Under the pieces are notes generated by a model. That model was given only the letters and a program-made list of their open reading frames with translations. It had not been told where the DNA came from and searched no databases. From Candidatus Heimdallarchaeota archaeon (GTDB lineage Archaea > Asgardarchaeota > Heimdallarchaeia > JABLTI01), in contig JABCTZ010000006.1 in assembly GCA_018238155.1 (NCBI GenBank), forward strand, positions 7,321 to 71,320: 64,000 nucleotides of DNA, given 5' to 3'. Shown piece by piece: positions 19,715 through 64,000 of this stretch. How positions within the stretch are numbered: the first letter of the stretch is position 1; each line of letters begins with the position of its first letter. The translations under genes were made by a program, and so were the position numbers.

Positions 19715-20857
19715 TTAAGCAGATGTAACAGTTTGCCAAACATAGATATTATCATAATATGAATCATCATTTGCAAAACTCACAAAACCGATGAAACCGT
19801 GAGAGAGTTGACTGTCTGCCCATGATAAAGTTGCTGTCTCAGAGTTATCAATAAATAGAGCACCATTTGATCCATCTGCAACAATTCTCCAAGAATACCA
19901 AACATTATTTGTTCTAGTCCAATCTGCTTCAGCAATTTTATACCAATTGAATCCATCTGCATCTCCTTCAACATAGTGAATGGTAATTTTGTTTTCAACA
20001 ATAATATCTCCTGGAGTTGCCCAATCAAAGTAGTCATGTCCGCCATCATGTGATGGGTTAGACGCGCCCGGATGGTTTCGTGTAAACCAAACACAGTAGA
20101 AATTTGGATAAGTACCTGAATCATCAAAACGATAAATGATTCCATTAGCATCATCGTCACCTGTTCGAAGATCATAAGTAATATTGACATCATAGAAGTC
20201 GCGTAAAGGATCTTCTAAGACAATGAATTGACAATCGTTATTCGTACATTCAGCAAAATGATTTCCACCTTGCTCAGAAATTTTCCAATCAGCAATTGTG
20301 TGTGTTCCACCACCATGAGTAGCCATAAGATAATGTGTCCATTCATTTAGGTCAATTGCAGATTCAAAATTATTTTCATATTGCAAAACAAAATGACTGA
20401 ATTTAGCAGAAACTTTGATTTCTATTTCTATTGTACTATCTTTGTCATATGCAAATGTAAATACCGCAAGCTCTCCATATCCGAATTCATGTACAGCATC
20501 TGCCGCAGAACATTTAACATCAACACTTGACCCTTGAACAATTGAGTAAGCCTCAGTTTTCAAAGTCCAATTAACCGTTACACCATTTTTAGTGACAACA
20601 ACTTCACTAATTATTGCTTCAGCAGTACCAATGTTGTTAATTGAAACTGTTAAGGAATCTGCAAATGGAGTAGCATCTTTATTCTCTAAATCATAATCCA
20701 TAACAATGAGCTGACCATCCCCTTTAAGTAAGGGTACGACAACAAAATAGACAATAGCTGCAGCAGTCACAGTAAGTGCTATTAATAATATCGTAGCAAT
20801 TACAGGAGAAACTGCTTTTCTTCTTGCCCATAGACTTTTTACTTTGTTTGATATCAT
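19715..20857 (-). CDS. Archaeal type IV pilin-like protein (class III signal peptide) with a C-terminal ConA/LamG-like lectin domain
   Basis: The N-terminus RRKAVSPVIATILLIALTVTAAAIVYFVV is the archaeal prepilin motif. The C-terminus (DFYDVNITYDLRTGDDDANGIIYRFDD ... HGFIGFVSFANDDSYYDNIYVW) looks like a DUF1080/LamG-type jelly roll. Confidence 0.7.
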   Translation of the reverse strand: MISNKVKSLWARRKAVSPVIATILLIALTVTAAAIVYFVVVPLLKGDGQLIVMDYDLENKDATPFADSLTVSINNIGTAEAIISEVVVTKNGVTVNWTLKTEAYSIVQGSSVDVKCSAADAVHEFGYGELAVFTFAYDKDSTIEIEIKVSAKFSHFVLQYENNFESAIDLNEWTHYLMATHGGGTHTIADWKISEQGGNHFAECTNNDCQFIVLEDPLRDFYDVNITYDLRTGDDDANGIIYRFDDSGTYPNFYCVWFTRNHPGASNPSHDGGHDYFDWATPGDIIVENKITIHYVEGDADGFNWYKIAEADWTRTNNVWYSWRIVADGSNGALFIDNSETATLSWADSQLSHGFIGFVSFANDDSYYDNIYVWQTVTSA

Positions 20858-21022: not shown

Positions 21023-21844
21023 TTATGCTATTTTGTTAGCAATGTTAAGGGATTGCTGAACACCTTTTTTTGGGATAATCACTTTTACCTCTGGAAAATG
21101 TTTCTCCATTTTTTGGAGAAAGTCATCTAAATTAACCTCATATGTTATGGGCGGGAATGTATCATCAATATGATGAAGCATAATTGCTTTTGGTTTAAAT
21201 GAGCGAATAACTTTCATGGTTTTTGGGATAATCCTTGAGCTACCCATTAACGGAAGTAATAAGAGATTTGTTGAAGATGACCTAAACGTTTTAAGCTCAT
21301 TTCTAGTTGTTCCCGCTGATCCCCAGTGATGCAAAACAAAGAGCTCATTATTATCTTCGTCACAATTGCTAATTCTAAAACTAAAAACAGATCTTTTTGG
21401 ATATTTTTTACTCAAAGTTAAAAATGGTTTCATTTCTCGAAGGAGGCCAATTTTCTTCTTTAATTGTCTCAAGATAAGTAATGCATCTATATGAACGTGT
21501 GCAGATTTAATTGGTTTAACAGTTATTGACCCGAAACGGAAAAGCATACCTTTTTCTAAAACTCTCAGTTTTTGAGTAGGAACACCTAAATTTGTGAGAT
21601 CTTTAGCAGTTTTTTTGGAACAATGAACTAGTATATCTCTCGAAGCAACTATTTCTGGAACAGAAAGAGAATGATCAAAATGTCCATGAGTAAGAAAAAT
21701 TGCTTCTGATTTGTCTGCAAATTTATTGATTATTGTTTTTTCAGAGGATAAAGCGGGATTCATAGGAAAAAAGGGATCAATAAGGATTCCGTTTTCAGCT
21801 GCTGAAATGTGAAATCCTGCGGTACCCAACCAAGTGATCTTCAT
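21023..21844 (-). CDS. Metallo-beta-lactamase-fold hydrolase
   Basis: Carries the HxHxDH motif (FLTHGHFDHS). Confidence 0.8.
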   Translation of the reverse strand: MKITWLGTAGFHISAAENGILIDPFFPMNPALSSEKTIINKFADKSEAIFLTHGHFDHSLSVPEIVASRDILVHCSKKTAKDLTNLGVPTQKLRVLEKGMLFRFGSITVKPIKSAHVHIDALLILRQLKKKIGLLREMKPFLTLSKKYPKRSVFSFRISNCDEDNNELFVLHHWGSAGTTRNELKTFRSSSTNLLLLPLMGSSRIIPKTMKVIRSFKPKAIMLHHIDDTFPPITYEVNLDDFLQKMEKHFPEVKVIIPKKGVQQSLNIANKIA

Positions 21845-21874: not shown

Positions 21875-22819
21875 TTATTTCTTCTCTGCCTTTATATTTT
21901 TTTTCTCATCAAAGTAGAGGAGGTAATTTTCACCTAAAATGAATTTTATTTGATTATGTAATTCCGTATTTCTTTCTTTAAGCCAGCGGAGAGCATGTTT
22001 AAGAGTCCAAATTAGATAGAAATTTTCTGCTCCTAACTCTTTTTTGGTTTTTGAGGATAAATTATCAGTCACTGTAATTTCGGCTTCTTTAATCCATTCT
22101 CTTACTAAAGTTAGAATTTTCTCAGGCATATATTTCGTTAAATCTTTTAGATTGTTACCCACTGATTTTCTTACGTAAATAGAAGAGTCAGCTTTGTTTA
22201 AGGCCAAAATCTCTAAAATACAATCGTTTTTCTTGGGATCCCTTAACCATTTTATGTCAGCAAGGGGACGTAAACTTTCAATAGACAATCTCCTCAAATT
22301 GTCACTTTCTGATGTAGACCACTCTTTGAGAATTGCTAGAGATTTTATTGGAAAAACTTTCAAACCTTTTCTAATCACTTGTCCACTCATTTCTCTTATT
22401 TCCCAATGTGGATGCTCTGCCCAGATCTTTGTTTGGAGCATGGCTTTTTGAAAATTCTCTTCAGAAAAAGTTGCAAGTTCACCCATTAAGGCTATAGCAT
22501 AATTCTTCATATGGTTGTTCCGATTAGAATCTGGATGTGCAAAAAGAGCAGCTATGAATGCAAAGGAATCAATATGTTGAACTTTGTGTAAATAATTCCC
22601 CGAAACCTCAGCAACAATCTTTGATATGTAAACGCTTCCTTTGCCTATCCGCTCTCTCTCAGGAATTAAATTATATTCCTTTTCTAAAAAAGATTCAATC
22701 TTCATGAGATTTTTATTTAACACAATGGTTTGGCAAATTTTTTCATTATTCAGAAATTTCATTGTTCTTTCTGTTATTTTCCCTTTAGAGCTAATTGATA
22801 CCACTAGAAGACATCTCAC
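21875..22819 (-). CDS. DNA alkylation repair enzyme family (HEAT-like repeat) protein
   Basis: Typical family segments are present: HPHWEIREMSGQVIRKGL, SDNLRRLSIESLRP, IYVRKSVGNNLKD. The start may be the internal Met at 22762. Confidence 0.65.
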   Translation of the reverse strand: MRCLLVVSISSKGKITERTMKFLNNEKICQTIVLNKNLMKIESFLEKEYNLIPERERIGKGSVYISKIVAEVSGNYLHKVQHIDSFAFIAALFAHPDSNRNNHMKNYAIALMGELATFSEENFQKAMLQTKIWAEHPHWEIREMSGQVIRKGLKVFPIKSLAILKEWSTSESDNLRRLSIESLRPLADIKWLRDPKKNDCILEILALNKADSSIYVRKSVGNNLKDLTKYMPEKILTLVREWIKEAEITVTDNLSSKTKKELGAENFYLIWTLKHALRWLKERNTELHNQIKFILGENYLLYFDEKKNIKAEKK

Positions 22820-23211
22820 AATATTTCTAATTAAGATAGTTCATATAAACTTGACTTTCAATTAAAAATATTCTGAATAATTTTTTTCTATGAGATGTTA
22901 ATGGACATCACAGAAAGAATCCAAAGAGCACTTCAATATCTGTGTAATGAATAAACAGAAATAGTCTCAAGGGACTGCTAAATTTTTGCTATTCCGATAG
23001 CTTCTGTTCCAGTTAATCTTTTTGAGGTTTCCAAAATAAGCAATTTAGATTTGGAGAGTCAATAAGCAGTATGGTTATTATTTTGAATGAAAAATAGAGG
23101 AAACCATTCTTACTTCATTATTTGTAGTGTATTCAAAAAAAATAAAAAAGATTCGTAAGATAACAAAAAAATAAATTAAATATTCTTTTAAAAACAAGAA
23201 TGAAAAAAGCT

Positions 23212-23445
23212 TTATCCGCCCTCTGTACGGGCGATTAGATATACTTTTTCATAATCGGTAATTCCAACTTCTTCAAATGTTTCGTTATCATCAAGTTGTC
23301 TTCCACGGAAAACAACGATTACCGCACTTGCAGGAATTCTCTTTTGTCGTGAGATTTCCCTTTTCAATTCAGCAATAGTTGAATTGGGTTTCACTTCACA
23401 GTCGATAACCCCGCCACCAATTGCAGATACAACCCTGACAATCAT
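23212..23445 (-). CDS. Ubiquitin-like beta-grasp protein terminating in Gly-Gly
   Basis: 77 aa. It aligns colinearly by hand with ubiquitin (E-V-x-P-x-x-T-I, I-P, F-x-G-x-Q-L-x-D, final R-x-x-G-G). The stop codon follows GG directly. Confidence 0.8.
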   Translation of the reverse strand: MIVRVVSAIGGGVIDCEVKPNSTIAELKREISRQKRIPASAVIVVFRGRQLDDNETFEEVGITDYEKVYLIARTEGG

Positions 23446-23564
23446 TTTAATTTTTCACCTTAGTTTTAATTTTATATTAACTGTATAGATTTTTTCTCTA
23501 CTAGAGTTTTAGCTAATATACAATATAAACCATTTCAAATGGAACATTAGCTAATCACACCTAT

Positions 23565-24326
23565 TTATTCAGTAACTATTTCTTTATGTTTATTTATTAA
23601 AGCTCCCATCAAGCCTCCTCCAAAGCCATTATCAATATTTACTACTGCTACATTTGGTGCACAGCTGTTTAACATGGTTAGCATTGCAGAAATTCCTTTC
23701 ATATTTGCTCCATAACCAATAGATGTTGGAACGGCAATTACAGGACAAGCAGCGAGACCTGCAACAACAGAAGGAAGCGCTCCTTCCATACCAGCTATGG
23801 CTACAATGGCATTCGCAGAGAATATCTTATCACGATGATGAAGCAAGCGATGTATGCCAGCAACTCCAACATCATAAATCCGAGTAATATTTGCACCCAT
23901 TATTTCAGCTGTTAGAGCGGCTTCTTCGGCAACGGGAATATCTGCAGTACCGCCACAAATAATCAATAAAGAACCAACCTTTTTTCTTTGTATTCTATTA
24001 AGATATATTATTCTTGCTTGCGAACAAAATTGTAAGTTCTCATCAACTTTCTTCAATTCGATATAGATTTTCTCAGTTGCACGTGTTAATAGAATATTCT
24101 CATTTCGCTTACTAAGAGAAGTATATATACCTTTGATTTGTTCTATAGTTTTTCCTGGACAATAAACAACTTCTGGAAAACCTTTCCTTAAAGCTCGGTG
24201 ATGATCAACTTTTGCATAACCAAGGTCCTCATAAGGAAAATCTTTGAGTCTTGCTAATACAGCGTTAAGAGAAACGCGGTCTTCTTTATACTCTTCCAAT
24301 AATTTCTTCAATTTATTTTGATCCAC
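23565..24326 (-). CDS. larB: Nickel-pincer cofactor biosynthesis protein LarB (PurE-like carboxylase/hydrolase)
   Basis: AKVDHHRALRKGFPEVVYCPGKTIEQI, plus a PurE-like C-terminal half (ICGGTADIPVAEEA ... AGMEGALPSVVAG). Confidence 0.85.
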   Translation of the reverse strand: MDQNKLKKLLEEYKEDRVSLNAVLARLKDFPYEDLGYAKVDHHRALRKGFPEVVYCPGKTIEQIKGIYTSLSKRNENILLTRATEKIYIELKKVDENLQFCSQARIIYLNRIQRKKVGSLLIICGGTADIPVAEEAALTAEIMGANITRIYDVGVAGIHRLLHHRDKIFSANAIVAIAGMEGALPSVVAGLAACPVIAVPTSIGYGANMKGISAMLTMLNSCAPNVAVVNIDNGFGGGLMGALINKHKEIVTE

Positions 24327-24367
24327 GCTTTTATCACCTTAGAATTATTTTCTAATTTAAGCTATGT

Positions 24368-25171
24368 CTACTTCCGAGTTTTATTCATTGAACCCTTCTT
24401 ATATCCATTTAAATCCAATGTCGTATAATCGAAACCAATTTCTTTAAATTTAGATGTTATTTTCTCGGCATTCTCAATGAGAAGTGAAAAATTATCCGGT
24501 GATACTTCAACTCGAACAAGTAAACCATGAACGCGGACACGAAGTCGAAGAATACCTAATTCTTTCAAATATTCTTCTGCTTCATAAACCATAGCTAACT
24601 TTTCTTTAGTTATTTTCTCTCCAAAGAAAAATCGCGTAGCTAGACATGGAGATGAAGGTTTGTCCCAGCAGGATAAGCTAAGCTGTTTTGAGAGTAATCT
24701 AATTTCTTCTTTCGTTAACCGTGCATCGATTAAGGGACTTTTAACAGAATATTCTTGAACTGCTTGATAACCTGGTCGATAATCATCTAAATCATCAAAA
24801 TTAGAACCTTCAATTAGTTGTCCGGAAATGCGTTGTGTTCTACAATATTGTTGAATCTCTTCAATAGCACCTTTCTTACAAATATAACATCTATTAGGAG
24901 GATTATTTTCAAACCATGAGTAATCCATTTTTGAAGAGTCAATAATTAGATGCTTTATGCCAATTTTTTTAGCAAGTATTTTAGCTTCTTCGAGTTCATG
25001 ACTTGGAAATTGTGGAGTATCTAATGTTAGAGCAATCGCTTCATCACCTAACATATTAAAAGCAACTTGAGCTAAAAAAGTGCTGTCGACCCCTCCAGAG
25101 AAGGCAATTACTACCGCTTTCAATTCTGAAAGGATCTGTTCTAATTCATCTAATTTATTTGATGTATTCAT
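24368..25171 (-). CDS. larE: ATP-dependent sacrificial sulfur transferase LarE (PP-loop ATPase)
   Basis: PP-loop AFSGGVDSTFLA and the LarE cysteine motif SSPCLATRF. Confidence 0.85.
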   Translation of the reverse strand: MNTSNKLDELEQILSELKAVVIAFSGGVDSTFLAQVAFNMLGDEAIALTLDTPQFPSHELEEAKILAKKIGIKHLIIDSSKMDYSWFENNPPNRCYICKKGAIEEIQQYCRTQRISGQLIEGSNFDDLDDYRPGYQAVQEYSVKSPLIDARLTKEEIRLLSKQLSLSCWDKPSSPCLATRFFFGEKITKEKLAMVYEAEEYLKELGILRLRVRVHGLLVRVEVSPDNFSLLIENAEKITSKFKEIGFDYTTLDLNGYKKGSMNKTRK

Positions 25172-25194: not shown

Positions 25195-26496
25195 TTATGC
25201 TGTGGAATTGGAGAAAATAAAGTAAATTGTCATTACATCATTCCATGTCTTACCAAATTTATTACCCAAGTGAGCAGTGGCACTGATAGAGTAATTACCT
25301 CCTTCAATTAGTAATCCATTTTCTATCCAAGAACCGATACCAACAGTTTTTTGACCCTCAAAATTATAAACAAGCGTCCATCCACCTTCACCTAGAACTT
25401 CACCACTTGTCTGGTTAGTAACTGTTAAAGTGAAAGATTGGAACTTTTGATGCCAATGACCTGGATTATTTACAGTAACAGTCGTAAATACAAACCAATG
25501 TTTCCCTCCAGTAACATCATAGGAATCTGTTTTTTCGAATTTAAGATCAACAATTCCAAAATGTGAACCCCAAGTAGCATCTAAAGTATCAACTATTGGA
25601 ATTAAAATAACAAGTCCAAGAACAATACTTGGTAAAATAAAATGTTTCTTTTTCATTGCCTTTTTATAGAAATCTTTCAAAATACCTAAGAATGTTTTAT
25701 CGCCATTTAATTCAACAGCTTCCTTTTTGGAAGTTTTTTCTTTAGTACTGGTTTTCTTTCCAAAAACTTTCTTATCGTCAAAAACATCCGATTCCTCGTC
25801 CTCTTCGTCTTTTGAGGTCATGCTAAGAACAATGGATAATAGAAAGACAATACCAACAACAACAAAAAGTGCCGTTCGACCACCTGAACTTTGGAAATAG
25901 CTATAGATTCCACCAAGGTAGGGGATTCTGCCAACAATTTTACCTACTAATCGATCTTCATGGATATTTAATTCATCAATTCTAATAAACTCAATAAATG
26001 CTTGATTGGTTTCCCAATTATCACCTTTTGTAGTGAACCAATAATCACCTGTGGCATCCTGATAAACACGCGTCACTCTGTGTACAATCGGGACATCAAC
26101 ATCCTCTGTGTGATTAACATAATTAAAAACAATTGCATCTCCAACCTTAATTGTAGATGGATCGACACCTCGGACAATAAGCATATCTTTTCTAATATCA
26201 TTTTCTCCGCCAAAACTATCTCTATTTGAACCCCAATAAGATGGCTCCATAGATTCACTTGTAACTACAACGAGTGGAGAACTTGTATTGAGAAAAGCTC
26301 CTAGGATTTGATTGAAACTAAGCACTAAGACTACTGCAATAATGATGAAGAATCCAATTTCAATGATGTCTTTTCTCCAAGTAGTTTTACTTTGCTTTTT
26401 AGACTTCTTTTCTGTTTTTTGTGACAAATTTGTTGGCGTCCTTTTCCTATGAATATAGGAGAATAATTGATACATGAATAAAATACTTTTCCACAA
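25195..26496 (-). CDS. Signal peptidase I (Sec11/archaeal type) with a long C-terminal extension
   Basis: Motifs SESMEPS (catalytic Ser), IVHRV and TKGDNW follow an N-terminal TM. Then come a second TM, a K/E-rich linker, a third TM and a beta-rich ~140-aa domain. Confidence 0.8.
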   Translation of the reverse strand: MWKSILFMYQLFSYIHRKRTPTNLSQKTEKKSKKQSKTTWRKDIIEIGFFIIIAVVLVLSFNQILGAFLNTSSPLVVVTSESMEPSYWGSNRDSFGGENDIRKDMLIVRGVDPSTIKVGDAIVFNYVNHTEDVDVPIVHRVTRVYQDATGDYWFTTKGDNWETNQAFIEFIRIDELNIHEDRLVGKIVGRIPYLGGIYSYFQSSGGRTALFVVVGIVFLLSIVLSMTSKDEEDEESDVFDDKKVFGKKTSTKEKTSKKEAVELNGDKTFLGILKDFYKKAMKKKHFILPSIVLGLVILIPIVDTLDATWGSHFGIVDLKFEKTDSYDVTGGKHWFVFTTVTVNNPGHWHQKFQSFTLTVTNQTSGEVLGEGGWTLVYNFEGQKTVGIGSWIENGLLIEGGNYSISATAHLGNKFGKTWNDVMTIYFIFSNSTA

Positions 26497-44547: not shown

Positions 44548-44766
44548 ATGAATGATTTCAACGCATTCCTTGGTCCAAAAGGTTTACTAGCATTTGCCAT
44601 TATTTTTCTAATTTTAGGAATAGCCGCGTTCGCATGGTTGTTCATGTATCAAGAAGCAGACCCAGATAGAACATTTCGTGGTTCAGTAGCCCGAGCATTT
44701 TCTGCATCAATGTTTATGGGATTTTCAGTTTTCCTCTTTGTTGTCTGGAGTGGCGCAATAGCATAA
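44548..44766 (+). CDS. Small 2-TM membrane protein
   Basis: 72 aa with two hydrophobic helices. A GAAGGAG motif lies upstream of the ATG. Confidence 0.55.
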   Translation: MNDFNAFLGPKGLLAFAIIFLILGIAAFAWLFMYQEADPDRTFRGSVARAFSASMFMGFSVFLFVVWSGAIA

Positions 44767-44825: not shown

Positions 44826-45572
44826 TCAATGATATTTAACATTTGAGCAATTGCTCTTAGATTTAATATTGAGCGTTTCAAAGAGCATTGAACCAATATC
44901 TATGAACAATAGGCTATTAATTAACAGTGGTTCTTCTTTTAGCATTACTCTAGTAGCTTCTGCAACTTGTAGGCTACCAATTAACTGAATTATACTTGGA
45001 TGAATACCTGTAATAGATGAAACTGGAAGTGTTTTATCATCAACATGACCAAATAAGCATTCAATACAAGTACTACCTCGAACAACAGTCATTGCATTCC
45101 CAGTTAAACCACTAACTGCACCAAAGAGGAAAGGTAAATCTTTTTCTAAACACTTTTTATTTATTGCAAATCTTGGTGTGAATCTATCTAAGGCATCAAT
45201 AACAAAATCTACATTATCAGTCACAAGTTCAACATTTTTAGTAGTAATCTCTTCCTGAATGATTTTAATTTCAACATCAGGATTAAGATATTCTAAGAAT
45301 TTTTTAGCTGCTTGTACTTTGGATTTGCCTACATCCTTTTCACGGTAAAGCATTTGTCTTTGCAAATTTGATAATTCAACGACATCTTTGTCAATTAATC
45401 GCAAGTAACCTACTCCTAAAGCAGTAAGTTGAGTAGCAGTAACAGAACCTAGACCTCCTGCTCCAACAATAGAGACTCTAGCTCTTCGTATTTTTTTCAT
45501 ACCCTCAACACCAATTGACGGGAGAACAATAAAACGAGAATATCTGCCTGTAGTCAAGTCCTTTTCGTTCAA
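44826..45572 (-). CDS. ThiF/MoeB/UBA-type E1-like adenylyltransferase
   Basis: RYSRFIVLPSIGVEGMKKI, Rossmann loop VGAGGLGS, LIDKDVVELSNLQRQ, and a single CxxC (CIEC). Confidence 0.85.
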   Translation of the reverse strand: MNEKDLTTGRYSRFIVLPSIGVEGMKKIRRARVSIVGAGGLGSVTATQLTALGVGYLRLIDKDVVELSNLQRQMLYREKDVGKSKVQAAKKFLEYLNPDVEIKIIQEEITTKNVELVTDNVDFVIDALDRFTPRFAINKKCLEKDLPFLFGAVSGLTGNAMTVVRGSTCIECLFGHVDDKTLPVSSITGIHPSIIQLIGSLQVAEATRVMLKEEPLLINSLLFIDIGSMLFETLNIKSKSNCSNVKYH

Positions 45573-46257: not shown

Positions 46258-47025
46258 CTAAGTATAAAAGGTGCTCTTTTTCCTTCCTTGTTGGGGCGAT
46301 GCAGAAGACATTTCTTGTGTTTGATGAGCTAATTCTGAAAGTTTCTTTTTTATGGATTCAGATTGCTCAACCAAATTTTTGACTTGTACATCTAATTCTT
46401 TTAAATTATTGATAACCTTAATGAGCGCTGCAGCACCTCCCGGATCTGGGAGATTAGGTCTTGTACCTACAAGAAACGCATATCCATCAACATCACTTAT
46501 CATGGTTTTGTTCAAAATTGCTCCTGCAAATCCTTTAATAAATCCACTTTTCAGAGGGGGAATGTTCAATTTCTCAGCTTTGGCTTTAAGCTCTGGTTCT
46601 GCAACCATATACACTTTCCCTTCATCATTTTTATTGAGATAGCCGAATCCATCAAGGATAATAATTTCCTTTGCTCCATGTTTCTCTGTCCATTCCATAA
46701 TAGTATTAGCAATGAAATAGGCAGCTTCCGGAGAGACAGCACTTTCACCAATGAATATTGCAATTTTCGAGCCTTTCTTTCCCATGATTCGATAAGGATG
46801 TCTTAGATACCCATCTAGGAAAACAGCTACAGGTGGTAATGCAACACCTTCTATAAAACCAATGGTTTCAAGGGCTAATTTTTTGCTTATATGTTGAGCA
46901 GCAATTGCTCCAGTTAACCCCATGCCCGGAAAACCAATAATAACTGTTTCTACATCAAAATCCGTTTTGCAGATACATCGAGCATACATCTCGGAATTAT
47001 CAATTAAACTTCTATCATAACTCAT
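46258..47025 (-). CDS. PAC2 (proteasome assembly chaperone 2) family protein
   Basis: VIIGFPGMGLTGAIAAQHI ... IAIFIGESAVSPEAAYFIANTIMEWTEKHGAKEIIILDG is typical of archaeal PAC2/PbaA-B-like proteins. Confidence 0.8.
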   Translation of the reverse strand: MSYDRSLIDNSEMYARCICKTDFDVETVIIGFPGMGLTGAIAAQHISKKLALETIGFIEGVALPPVAVFLDGYLRHPYRIMGKKGSKIAIFIGESAVSPEAAYFIANTIMEWTEKHGAKEIIILDGFGYLNKNDEGKVYMVAEPELKAKAEKLNIPPLKSGFIKGFAGAILNKTMISDVDGYAFLVGTRPNLPDPGGAAALIKVINNLKELDVQVKNLVEQSESIKKKLSELAHQTQEMSSASPQQGRKKSTFYT

Positions 47026-62320: not shown

Positions 62321-63084
62321 TTTGACATCACATCCTTCTATTTGGAAATAGTTATAAATCTTTTTTTAGCACAAAAAAAACACTTATTATAAAAGTAACA
62401 GTAAACAGATAAAAAATACTCTCTCCAGAGGAAAAATTAACAGTAAAAGTAAAGAGAAAATATTTTATTCCAACAACGGGAATAATAAACATGAGGAAAG
62501 GTTTTAATACTACTGCTTCAAAACAAAACAAGTCAAAAGACGAAAACTCGGGATGGAACGCAAGAGAAATAAAAACTTGCAGACCATTTGCTTATTGGAG
62601 CAAAAGTTTAAAAACAAAAAACTTCACCGACAGAGATTAGTTTCTTCATGAAACTGCTCGCACCGTATATGAAGGCGACAATCCGACTAGGAGCATACCG
62701 CTCTAGAATGACAGGTTGCAAAAATCCAAGCGAGCAAACAATGAAAAAAGAAACGAAAAATCTCAAAAAAATAAATAATATTAAATAACAATAAATAACA
62801 TCAAAAAATAATAATCATTATGTTTACTATGAGATCCCGAAATAAAACGGTTCGGGGTTGATGAAAACCAACTCGCGCTATTATATATTACCCCCAATAG
62901 AATAAAAGCAAAATTGCATGGTTAAAAGACATGTAAAGGTTGTACAAACTAATAATTCCTACTGTTAGAAAGCAAATATTTTTCTAGTGGAAAGTAAGAT
63001 CTTGTTAATAGTAAACCCGTACACAAAAAACCCTGTTATGTTTATACCATAAATGGTCCATAACTAATCAAAAACAGGAATCAA

Positions 63085-64000
<916 letters not shown>

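Follow-up and report, generated by a model that had tools for sequence, protein, structure and literature searches.

A stand-alone gene for a Gly-Gly-terminated ubiquitin in a Heimdall-group Asgard archaeon

The question raised by this locus is whether a 77-codon gene ending at Gly-Gly, for which genome-wide profile searches place no E2, RING or JAB gene within the same 64-kb window (the whole stretch of DNA analysed here, 64,000 nucleotides), encodes a ubiquitin, and which enzymes it would work with. Asgard ubiquitin systems bear on the origin of eukaryotic protein tagging and of ubiquitin-directed ESCRT sorting. We conclude that the gene is very probably the sole ubiquitin of its host, translated already mature with a free C-terminal Gly-Gly. 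The evidence consists of family membership, predicted fold, the Gly-Gly terminus, orthology to operon-encoded ubiquitins, the presence of orthologous E1 and E2 genes, and purifying selection; the enzyme pairing, the substrates and the chain type we infer. The host is a Heimdall-group Asgard archaeon, represented by a 4.08-Mb MAG of 46 contigs (90.7% complete, 5.9% contamination). An archaeal 16S rRNA gene lies with its 5′ part in the window (63084-64000), and close homologues of the ubiquitin protein bear Heimdallarchaeota or Asgard labels in public records, where NCBI names them 'ubiquitin-like domain-containing protein'.

The gene and its product

The features of the window that enter the argument, all on the minus strand, are as follows.

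23212..23445, minus strand: ubiquitin gene, 77 aa ending in RTEGG, stop codon TAA at 23214-23212
23190..23211, minus strand: T-runs directly 3′ of the ubiquitin stop codon, T6 at 23208-23203 and T5 at 23194-23190
23446..23564, minus strand: larB-ubiquitin spacer, 119 bp, read from sequence
23565..24326, minus strand: larB (nickel-pincer cofactor synthesis), NCBIfam NF033503 LarB at 280.6 bits against a cut-off of 175
24368..25171, minus strand: larE (ATP-dependent sacrificial sulfur transferase), NCBIfam TIGR00268 at 301.3 bits against a cut-off of 150
44826..45572, minus strand: E1-like gene, 248 aa, MoeB/ThiF/UbaA-type, PF00899 at 228 bits

The ubiquitin reading frame opens with an ATG at 23445-23443 and closes with GGC GGA TAA at 23220-23212, so the Gly-Gly-then-stop ending described in the first-pass annotation is correct; its 77 codons translate to a C-terminus reading ...ARTEGG. 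The spacer towards larB measures 119 bp, the upstream distance given earlier, and contains a Shine-Dalgarno-like AGGTGA at 23460-23455, 9 nt 5′ of the ATG, as well as TATA-like AT-rich stretches at 23480-23470 and 23528-23513. This spacer is probably the gene's own promoter, and the T-runs beyond the stop codon are likely to be an archaeal oligo-T termination signal. The downstream gap, given earlier as 391 bp, is in fact one longer, 392 bp to the GTG start, at 22819, of the long ORF that follows. The claim that the gene is monocistronic fits these flanking gaps, and a single-gene transcript is plausible judging from the sequence.

Between the ubiquitin gene and pyrD lie three additional minus-strand genes (21875-22819, 21023-21844 and 19715-20857), which encode a HEAT protein resembling those of DNA alkylation repair, a protein with a metallo-beta-lactamase fold and one of 380 aa without a Pfam match. 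In close relatives pyrD comes 130-170 bp after the ubiquitin gene, without these three. On the other side, larB and larE are syntenic context and lie outside the ubiquitin system. No larC or larA is recognisable near larB-larE (23565-25171), and upstream of larE comes a gene (25195-26496) whose product is homologous to archaeal signal peptidase I.

At the sequence level the likeness of the 77-aa protein to ubiquitin is far above chance. In a Pfam search it matches PF00240 at 50.8 bits (cut-off 25.4, E=1.4e-13) over profile positions 5-70 of 72, with Rad60-SLD as the second-best model, and the ThiS, MoaD and Urm1 models (PF02597, PF09138) give no match even at E<=10; the profile contrast between ubiquitin and the sulfur carriers thus comes out for ubiquitin. 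BLASTP against one polyubiquitin unit gives 23/72 identities (32%) without a gap, query residues 6-77 on ubiquitin 5-76, in agreement with the earlier estimate of a colinear protein identical at a quarter to a third of positions. All of the motifs quoted with that estimate are found in the alignment (archaeal/eukaryotic: CEVKPNSTI/LEVEPSDTI, RIPAS/GIPPD, FRGRQLDD/FAGKQLED and RTEGG/RLRGG). When the PDB was searched with phmmer, a single eukaryotic ubiquitin scored at E about 1e-7, and the closest single-domain protein was the ubiquitin of Caldiarchaeum subterraneum (6fj7, 2mqj, 6fnn), at E about 4e-14. A large representative library yielded 2776 matching proteins at E<=0.001, almost all of them eukaryotic polyubiquitins with scores inflated by repeats, and was uninformative on archaeal relatives; these were found by a word-indexed search and a genome scan.

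With 17 relatives as input, AlphaFold2 predicts a structure with a pLDDT of 90.1 and the secondary-structure order beta-beta-alpha-beta-beta-3/10-beta, i.e. a beta-grasp fold. Foldseek aligns this predicted model to ubiquitin chains with TM 0.87-0.93 and rmsd 1.1-2.4 A, and to Caldiarchaeum ubiquitin (6fj7/6fnn) with TM 0.87-0.91 and 36-37% identity, so the structure prediction proposed earlier also points to ubiquitin.

In the gapless alignment, G76-G77 pair with ubiquitin G75-G76, R72 is retained as R73, and the hydrophobic-patch positions L8, I44 and V70 are occupied by I9, V45 and I71. Lys48 corresponds to an arginine, R49, as had been claimed, and K63 pairs with D64. K6, K11, K29 and K33 pair with S7, G12, E30 and Q34, which leaves K27, kept as K28, as the only one of ubiquitin's lysines K6/K11/K27/K29/K33/K48/K63 to be retained. 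The 39 distinct sequences that were aligned, all with the motif in its S/T-A-I-G-G form, share K28 without exception and K67 almost without exception; position 49 of related sequences is R, Q, T or K, and position 64 is mostly D. With no lysine to match either K48 or K63, chains of these two types seem less likely than mono-ubiquitylation or linkages of a non-canonical kind, the chain type being deduced from these residues. As trypsin cuts after R73, the remnant that this ubiquitin would leave on lysines is TEGG, not GG.

The Gly-Gly stands directly before the stop codon, and the protein would therefore be ready for conjugation without processing, as the first-pass annotation had proposed. Published work shows an archaeal E1 to accept its ubiquitin when this ends in GG, but not in the propeptide form (Hennell James et al., PMC5654768). 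Ending exactly at Gly-Gly is common among Asgard ubiquitins rather than special: 36 of the 65 complete orthologues do so, including 10 of the 11 in the window's own clade, and the remainder carry 1-16 extra residues. RTEGG itself is invariant: each of the 38 distinct sequences whose C-terminus is covered by the alignment has it, as do 19 complete ones left unaligned.

Orthologues, gene order and selection

A scan of one genome per species, with neighbours taken as called ORFs labelled by BLASTP, found 66 orthologous ubiquitin loci at 44-100% identity, in MAGs labelled Heimdall-, Borr-, Sif-, Atabeya-, Frey-, Jord-, Hel-, Hermod-, Kari-, Hod- and, in one case, Thorarchaeota. The signature motifs (V/I)V(S/P)AIGG and YLI(A/T)RTEGG are common to them. 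The gene orders around ubiquitin are:

33 loci: ubiquitin together with E2 and E1, in most cases behind a RING gene and in many back to back with the ESCRT-I/II genes UEV-Vps23, Vps28 and EAP30
12 loci: ubiquitin-E1 pair
4 loci: RING-ubiquitin-JAB, followed by ESCRT genes
3 loci: RING adjoining ubiquitin only, mostly at a contig end
3 loci: no layout with RING, E1, E2 or JAB nearby
11 loci: the window's own clade (91-100% identical), with ubiquitin after larE-larB

An E1, E2, RING or JAB gene thus lies within 6 kb at 52 of the 55 loci outside the window's clade, and larB or larE lies near ubiquitin at none of them. Within the clade the 11 loci have no conjugation genes near ubiquitin; larB is 61-120 bp upstream in 10 of them (the eleventh is a short contig without a labelled neighbour), and pyrD follows wherever the contig reaches. 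The lar-linked layout larE-larB-ubiquitin-pyrD is limited to the window's own order, which comprises 12 species genomes in 2 genera. The ubiquitin gene is present in 11 of the 12, and in 11 of the 12 genomes a single PF00240 match exceeds the Pfam cut-off (G003 has two, identical to each other); in the host genome the single PF00240 gene is the one at 23212-23445. In relatives with 94% identity the order CGI-121, THUMP, signal peptidase, larE, larB, ubiquitin, pyrD, pyrK is preserved, and because this whole neighbourhood is syntenic, the stand-alone position of ubiquitin is a derived trait of the order. The statement that the gene is not clustered with E1, E2, E3 or JAMM genes therefore holds, the window having no E2, RING or JAB gene and its sole ThiF gene lying 21 kb off.

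Some of the other loci merit comment. The tailed ubiquitins of four Borr-type loci have a JAB gene 107-205 bp downstream, an arrangement that, by analogy, would fit the Rpn11-dependent maturation of Caldiarchaeum pro-ubiquitin (PMC5654768). One locus labelled Thorarchaeota (L084, JBHLSA010000040.1) carries ubiquitin-E2-E1. According to PMC9192718, Thorarchaeota seem to be without true ubiquitin; either this bin is mislabelled or ubiquitin does occur in part of the Thor lineages. Three loci labelled Bathyarchaeia, Deferrimicrobium and Thermoproteota (L038, L064, L075) show a typical Asgard context and probably come from mislabelled or chimeric bins.

Between the ubiquitin gene and that of one relative (L032), 42 codons differ, by 43 nucleotides in total; every codon change is synonymous, so that the protein is without an amino-acid change while LarB, LarE and PyrD are only 62-73% identical; purifying selection extends over the C-terminal tail. 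Across the 11 own-clade loci there are 13-44 synonymous and 0-7 non-synonymous codon changes. Identity within the clade is 91-100% for ubiquitin, 64-91% for LarB, 50-88% for LarE (omitting a 46-residue LarE fragment in L040) and 64-92% for PyrD. This shows that the ORF is a translated gene under very strong constraint.

Conjugation machinery and alternative readings

The first-pass annotation had held that lack of an E2, E3 and deubiquitinase repertoire would favour a sulfur-carrier or SAMP-like role. The repertoire is there: the genome has a canonical E2, a UBA1/UBA3-like E1, some 19 RING matches, two JAB proteins, and UEV-Vps23, Vps28 and EAP30. There are three genes of E2 fold, one canonical and two of UEV type without the catalytic cysteine. 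The canonical E2 (157 aa, C3:20120-20590) has the motif WHPNIFKDRIC and finds its best PDB matches in UbcH5 and UBE2D; it is 51-64% identical to 36 ubiquitin-adjacent E2s, every one of which has HPN...C. The UEV-type protein on contig C21 is UEV-Vps23, one of two such proteins in the genome, and adjoins homologues of Vps28 and EAP30. The 19 RING matches include 11 above the Pfam cut-off, and no specific RING partner stands out, as tblastn with an operon RING matches many RING genes about equally. The two JAB proteins (on C17 and C41) have intact HxHx7Sx2D JAMM motifs. The one on C41 is a JAMM protease of 293 aa (G000:C41:41321-42202, L009:1468-2349) whose hydrophobic C-terminal stretch resembles a membrane anchor, and it may be a membrane-bound deubiquitinase. 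Two ThiS-like genes are also present, one with a 76-aa product ending in AGG, and a genome search gave no match to Urm1.

Three genes encode ThiF-fold proteins: the one in the window (44826-45572), a 333-aa enzyme at C13:55406-56377, and a third in a JAB row, also on C13. We take the 333-aa enzyme to be the cognate E1 by orthology. Its identity is 47% with the ThiF protein encoded immediately after ubiquitin in one relative and 42-53% with 27 further ubiquitin-adjacent E1s, and among PDB sequences it is matched best by UBA1 and UBA3, in their active adenylation domains. Two CxxC zinc motifs, invariant among these E1s, and a conserved loop cysteine are present. The predicted model has, in addition, a beta-grasp-like (ubiquitin-fold-like) domain at the C-terminus; its alignment to UBA3 spans about 400 columns, those to ThiF and MoeB only about 253.

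The E1-like gene in the window is where the annotation had placed the only one, 21 kb away, but it is of the MoeB/ThiF/UbaA type and probably not the cognate enzyme. The protein has no C-terminal extension; its best PDB match is E. coli ThiF, it matches this protein and MoeB over its full length, and its NCBIfam scores are 198 bits for MoeB, 194 for ThiF and 188 for UbaA against only 68 for Ube1. We rejected it as the cognate E1 on these grounds, given that the C13 enzyme is orthologous to ubiquitin-adjacent E1s, and the ThiS-like proteins of the genome, not ubiquitin, are its probable partners. It adjoins a 72-aa plus-strand ORF (44548-44766) that matches Ost5 (oligosaccharyltransferase subunit 5), a eukaryotic-signature protein, at 31.8 bits (Pfam cut-off 27.4); a PAC2 proteasome-assembly homologue lies nearby at 46258-47025.

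The row on C13 (25-29 kb) was also considered as ubiquitin machinery and rejected, as it has a small protein of its own and stands behind an SMC-like ATPase:

G000:C13:25158-28796 (L022:5158-8796), plus strand: second ubiquitin-like kit of JAB, ThiF, small protein and E2-like protein

Its members are a JAB protein of 211 aa with an intact JAMM motif, a ThiF protein of 284 aa, a small protein of 103 aa ending in ...AQVG, and an E2-like protein of 259 aa (WHPRIS...DAC). The ATPase upstream is a 995-aa SMC/LmuB-like protein at L022:629-3616.

If the enzymes are paired as we propose, the 333-aa E1, with its ThiF-type adenylation domain, loop cysteine, two CxxC motifs and C-terminal ubiquitin-fold-like domain, would adenylate Gly77 and form a thioester. 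Ubiquitin would then be transferred to the canonical E2 on C3 through its HPN...Cys site, and one of the many RING proteins would ligate it onto substrate lysines. The ubiquitylated proteins may be read by UEV-Vps23/ESCRT-I (C21), and ubiquitin may be released by the JAMM proteases on C17 and C41. The pairing of this E1 and E2 with the ubiquitin is drawn from orthology, the genes being physically unlinked. At 5.9% contamination, a foreign origin of the enzymes on other contigs is in principle conceivable, against which counts the fact that E1, E2 and ubiquitin orthologues co-occur in relatives.

Three other readings of the gene were weighed. That the protein docks on UEV, the proteasome or Cdc48 without being conjugated, conjugation having been lost after the gene left its operon, would account for its detachment from E1, E2 and RING genes in all 11 own-clade relatives and for the missing canonical chain lysines K48 and K63. 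We consider it very unlikely, given the invariance of RTEGG in the 38 aligned and 19 further complete sequences, the free Gly-Gly kept at all but one of the own-clade loci, the extreme purifying selection that includes the C-terminal tail, and the orthologous E1 and E2 with retained catalytic residues. A eukaryotic contaminant or a recent transfer from a eukaryote is hardly conceivable: strong matches to eukaryotic polyubiquitins did dominate the large library search, but identity to eukaryotic ubiquitin is only 32%, the contig bears archaeal genes besides the 16S rRNA gene, the GC content of the gene is that of its surroundings (even across the window, about 33%), and orthologues of 44-100% identity sit in archaeal operons across Asgard.

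The position beside larE suggests a different alternative, namely a sulfur-carrier beta-grasp protein (like SAMP2, Urm1 or TtuB) whose Gly-Gly is thiocarboxylated for LarE or another thiolase. The gene follows larE-larB by 119 bp on the same strand, in an order kept by the 10 relatives whose contigs reach larB, and a MoeB/UbaA-type E1 lies in the same window. Yet the ThiS, MoaD and Urm1 profiles all fail to match, distinct ThiS-like GG proteins are encoded in the genome for such a role, and LarE keeps its own sacrificial cysteine motif, SPCLATR. At the 55 loci outside the order the neighbours are E1, E2, RING or JAB genes instead of larB or larE, and since everything from CGI-121 to pyrD-pyrK is syntenic, the adjacency looks inherited rather than functional. 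We therefore regard this reading as highly improbable, with a small opening left by the steady position beside larE for a sulfur-carrier side role of the ubiquitin.

Significance and comparison with known systems

The gene is an Asgard ubiquitin of an already described kind, and it does not define a new kind of system. Mildly new are the order-wide dispersal of the system, the strict conservation of the protein and the lack of K48 and K63 equivalents: in one Heimdall-group order the ubiquitin system has left the operon, ubiquitin is encoded ready for use, and the protein is conserved almost as strictly as eukaryotic ubiquitin. We can only tentatively suggest, as a reading more doubtful than probable, that the order has a dispersed, eukaryote-like layout, in which a pre-matured, near-invariant ubiquitin with its own promoter would serve scattered E1 and E2 enzymes and an enlarged RING set, giving mono-ubiquitin or non-K48/K63 signals. 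That RING set may include receptor-like membrane RING proteins, and the linkage candidates may be K28, K67 and Met1. If this layout is real, the lineage would be naturally placed between archaeal ubiquitylation of the operon type and the network of eukaryotes. The absent K48 and K63 equivalents make a testable prediction about pre-eukaryotic ubiquitin signals.

The closest known systems are the operon ubiquitins of other Asgard archaea (RING-Ub-E2-E1/ESCRT). They belong to the same family, at 44-65% identity and with the same motifs and length, and orthologues of their E1 and E2 are present in the host genome. The host gene differs in lying outside an operon, between larB and pyrD throughout its order, and the host's E1, E2, RING, JAMM and ESCRT genes are on other contigs. 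The Helarchaeota Hel_GB_B pro-ubiquitin, trimmed to Gly-Gly, has been conjugated in vitro by E1, E2 and a RING E3, with K201 of UEV-Vps23 as the in vitro target (Lu et al., bioRxiv 10.1101/2023.07.25.550441). One of our loci (L052) is contig NODE_4 of that genome, and its ubiquitin is 56% identical to the host protein and ends in GG-SPKN; the reconstituted Helarchaeota ubiquitin thus has an SPKN propeptide, and the host ubiquitin has none. Heimdall and Odin ubiquitins bind their UEV proteins (Hatano et al., PMC9192718); the text of that paper contains no statement on the di-glycine, Rpn11 or a propeptide.

The ubiquitin of Caldiarchaeum subterraneum (2MQJ, 6FJ7, 6FNN; PMC5654768) shares the fold, is the best single-domain sequence match in the PDB, and is likewise a prokaryotic ubiquitin that works with an E1, an E2 and a small RING E3. 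Isopeptide linkage to lysines of substrates has been demonstrated for it, as for the Helarchaeota orthologue. It has a 9-residue propeptide cut by the adjacent Rpn11/JAMM protease, a step that the host ubiquitin does not need, and unlike its genes, those of the host system are not in an operon. SAMP, ThiS, MoaD and Urm1 are also small beta-grasp proteins with a C-terminal Gly-Gly that are activated by a ThiF-fold E1, but their profiles do not match the host ubiquitin, which has putative E2 and RING partners instead. With eukaryotic ubiquitin, the host protein shares a gapless alignment, the beta-grasp fold (rmsd 1.1-2 A), the terminal Gly-Gly and extreme purifying selection; the eukaryotic tail is RLRGG where the host's is RTEGG, and, unlike eukaryotic ubiquitin, the host protein is encoded as a monomer, without a fusion or poly-ubiquitin precursor.
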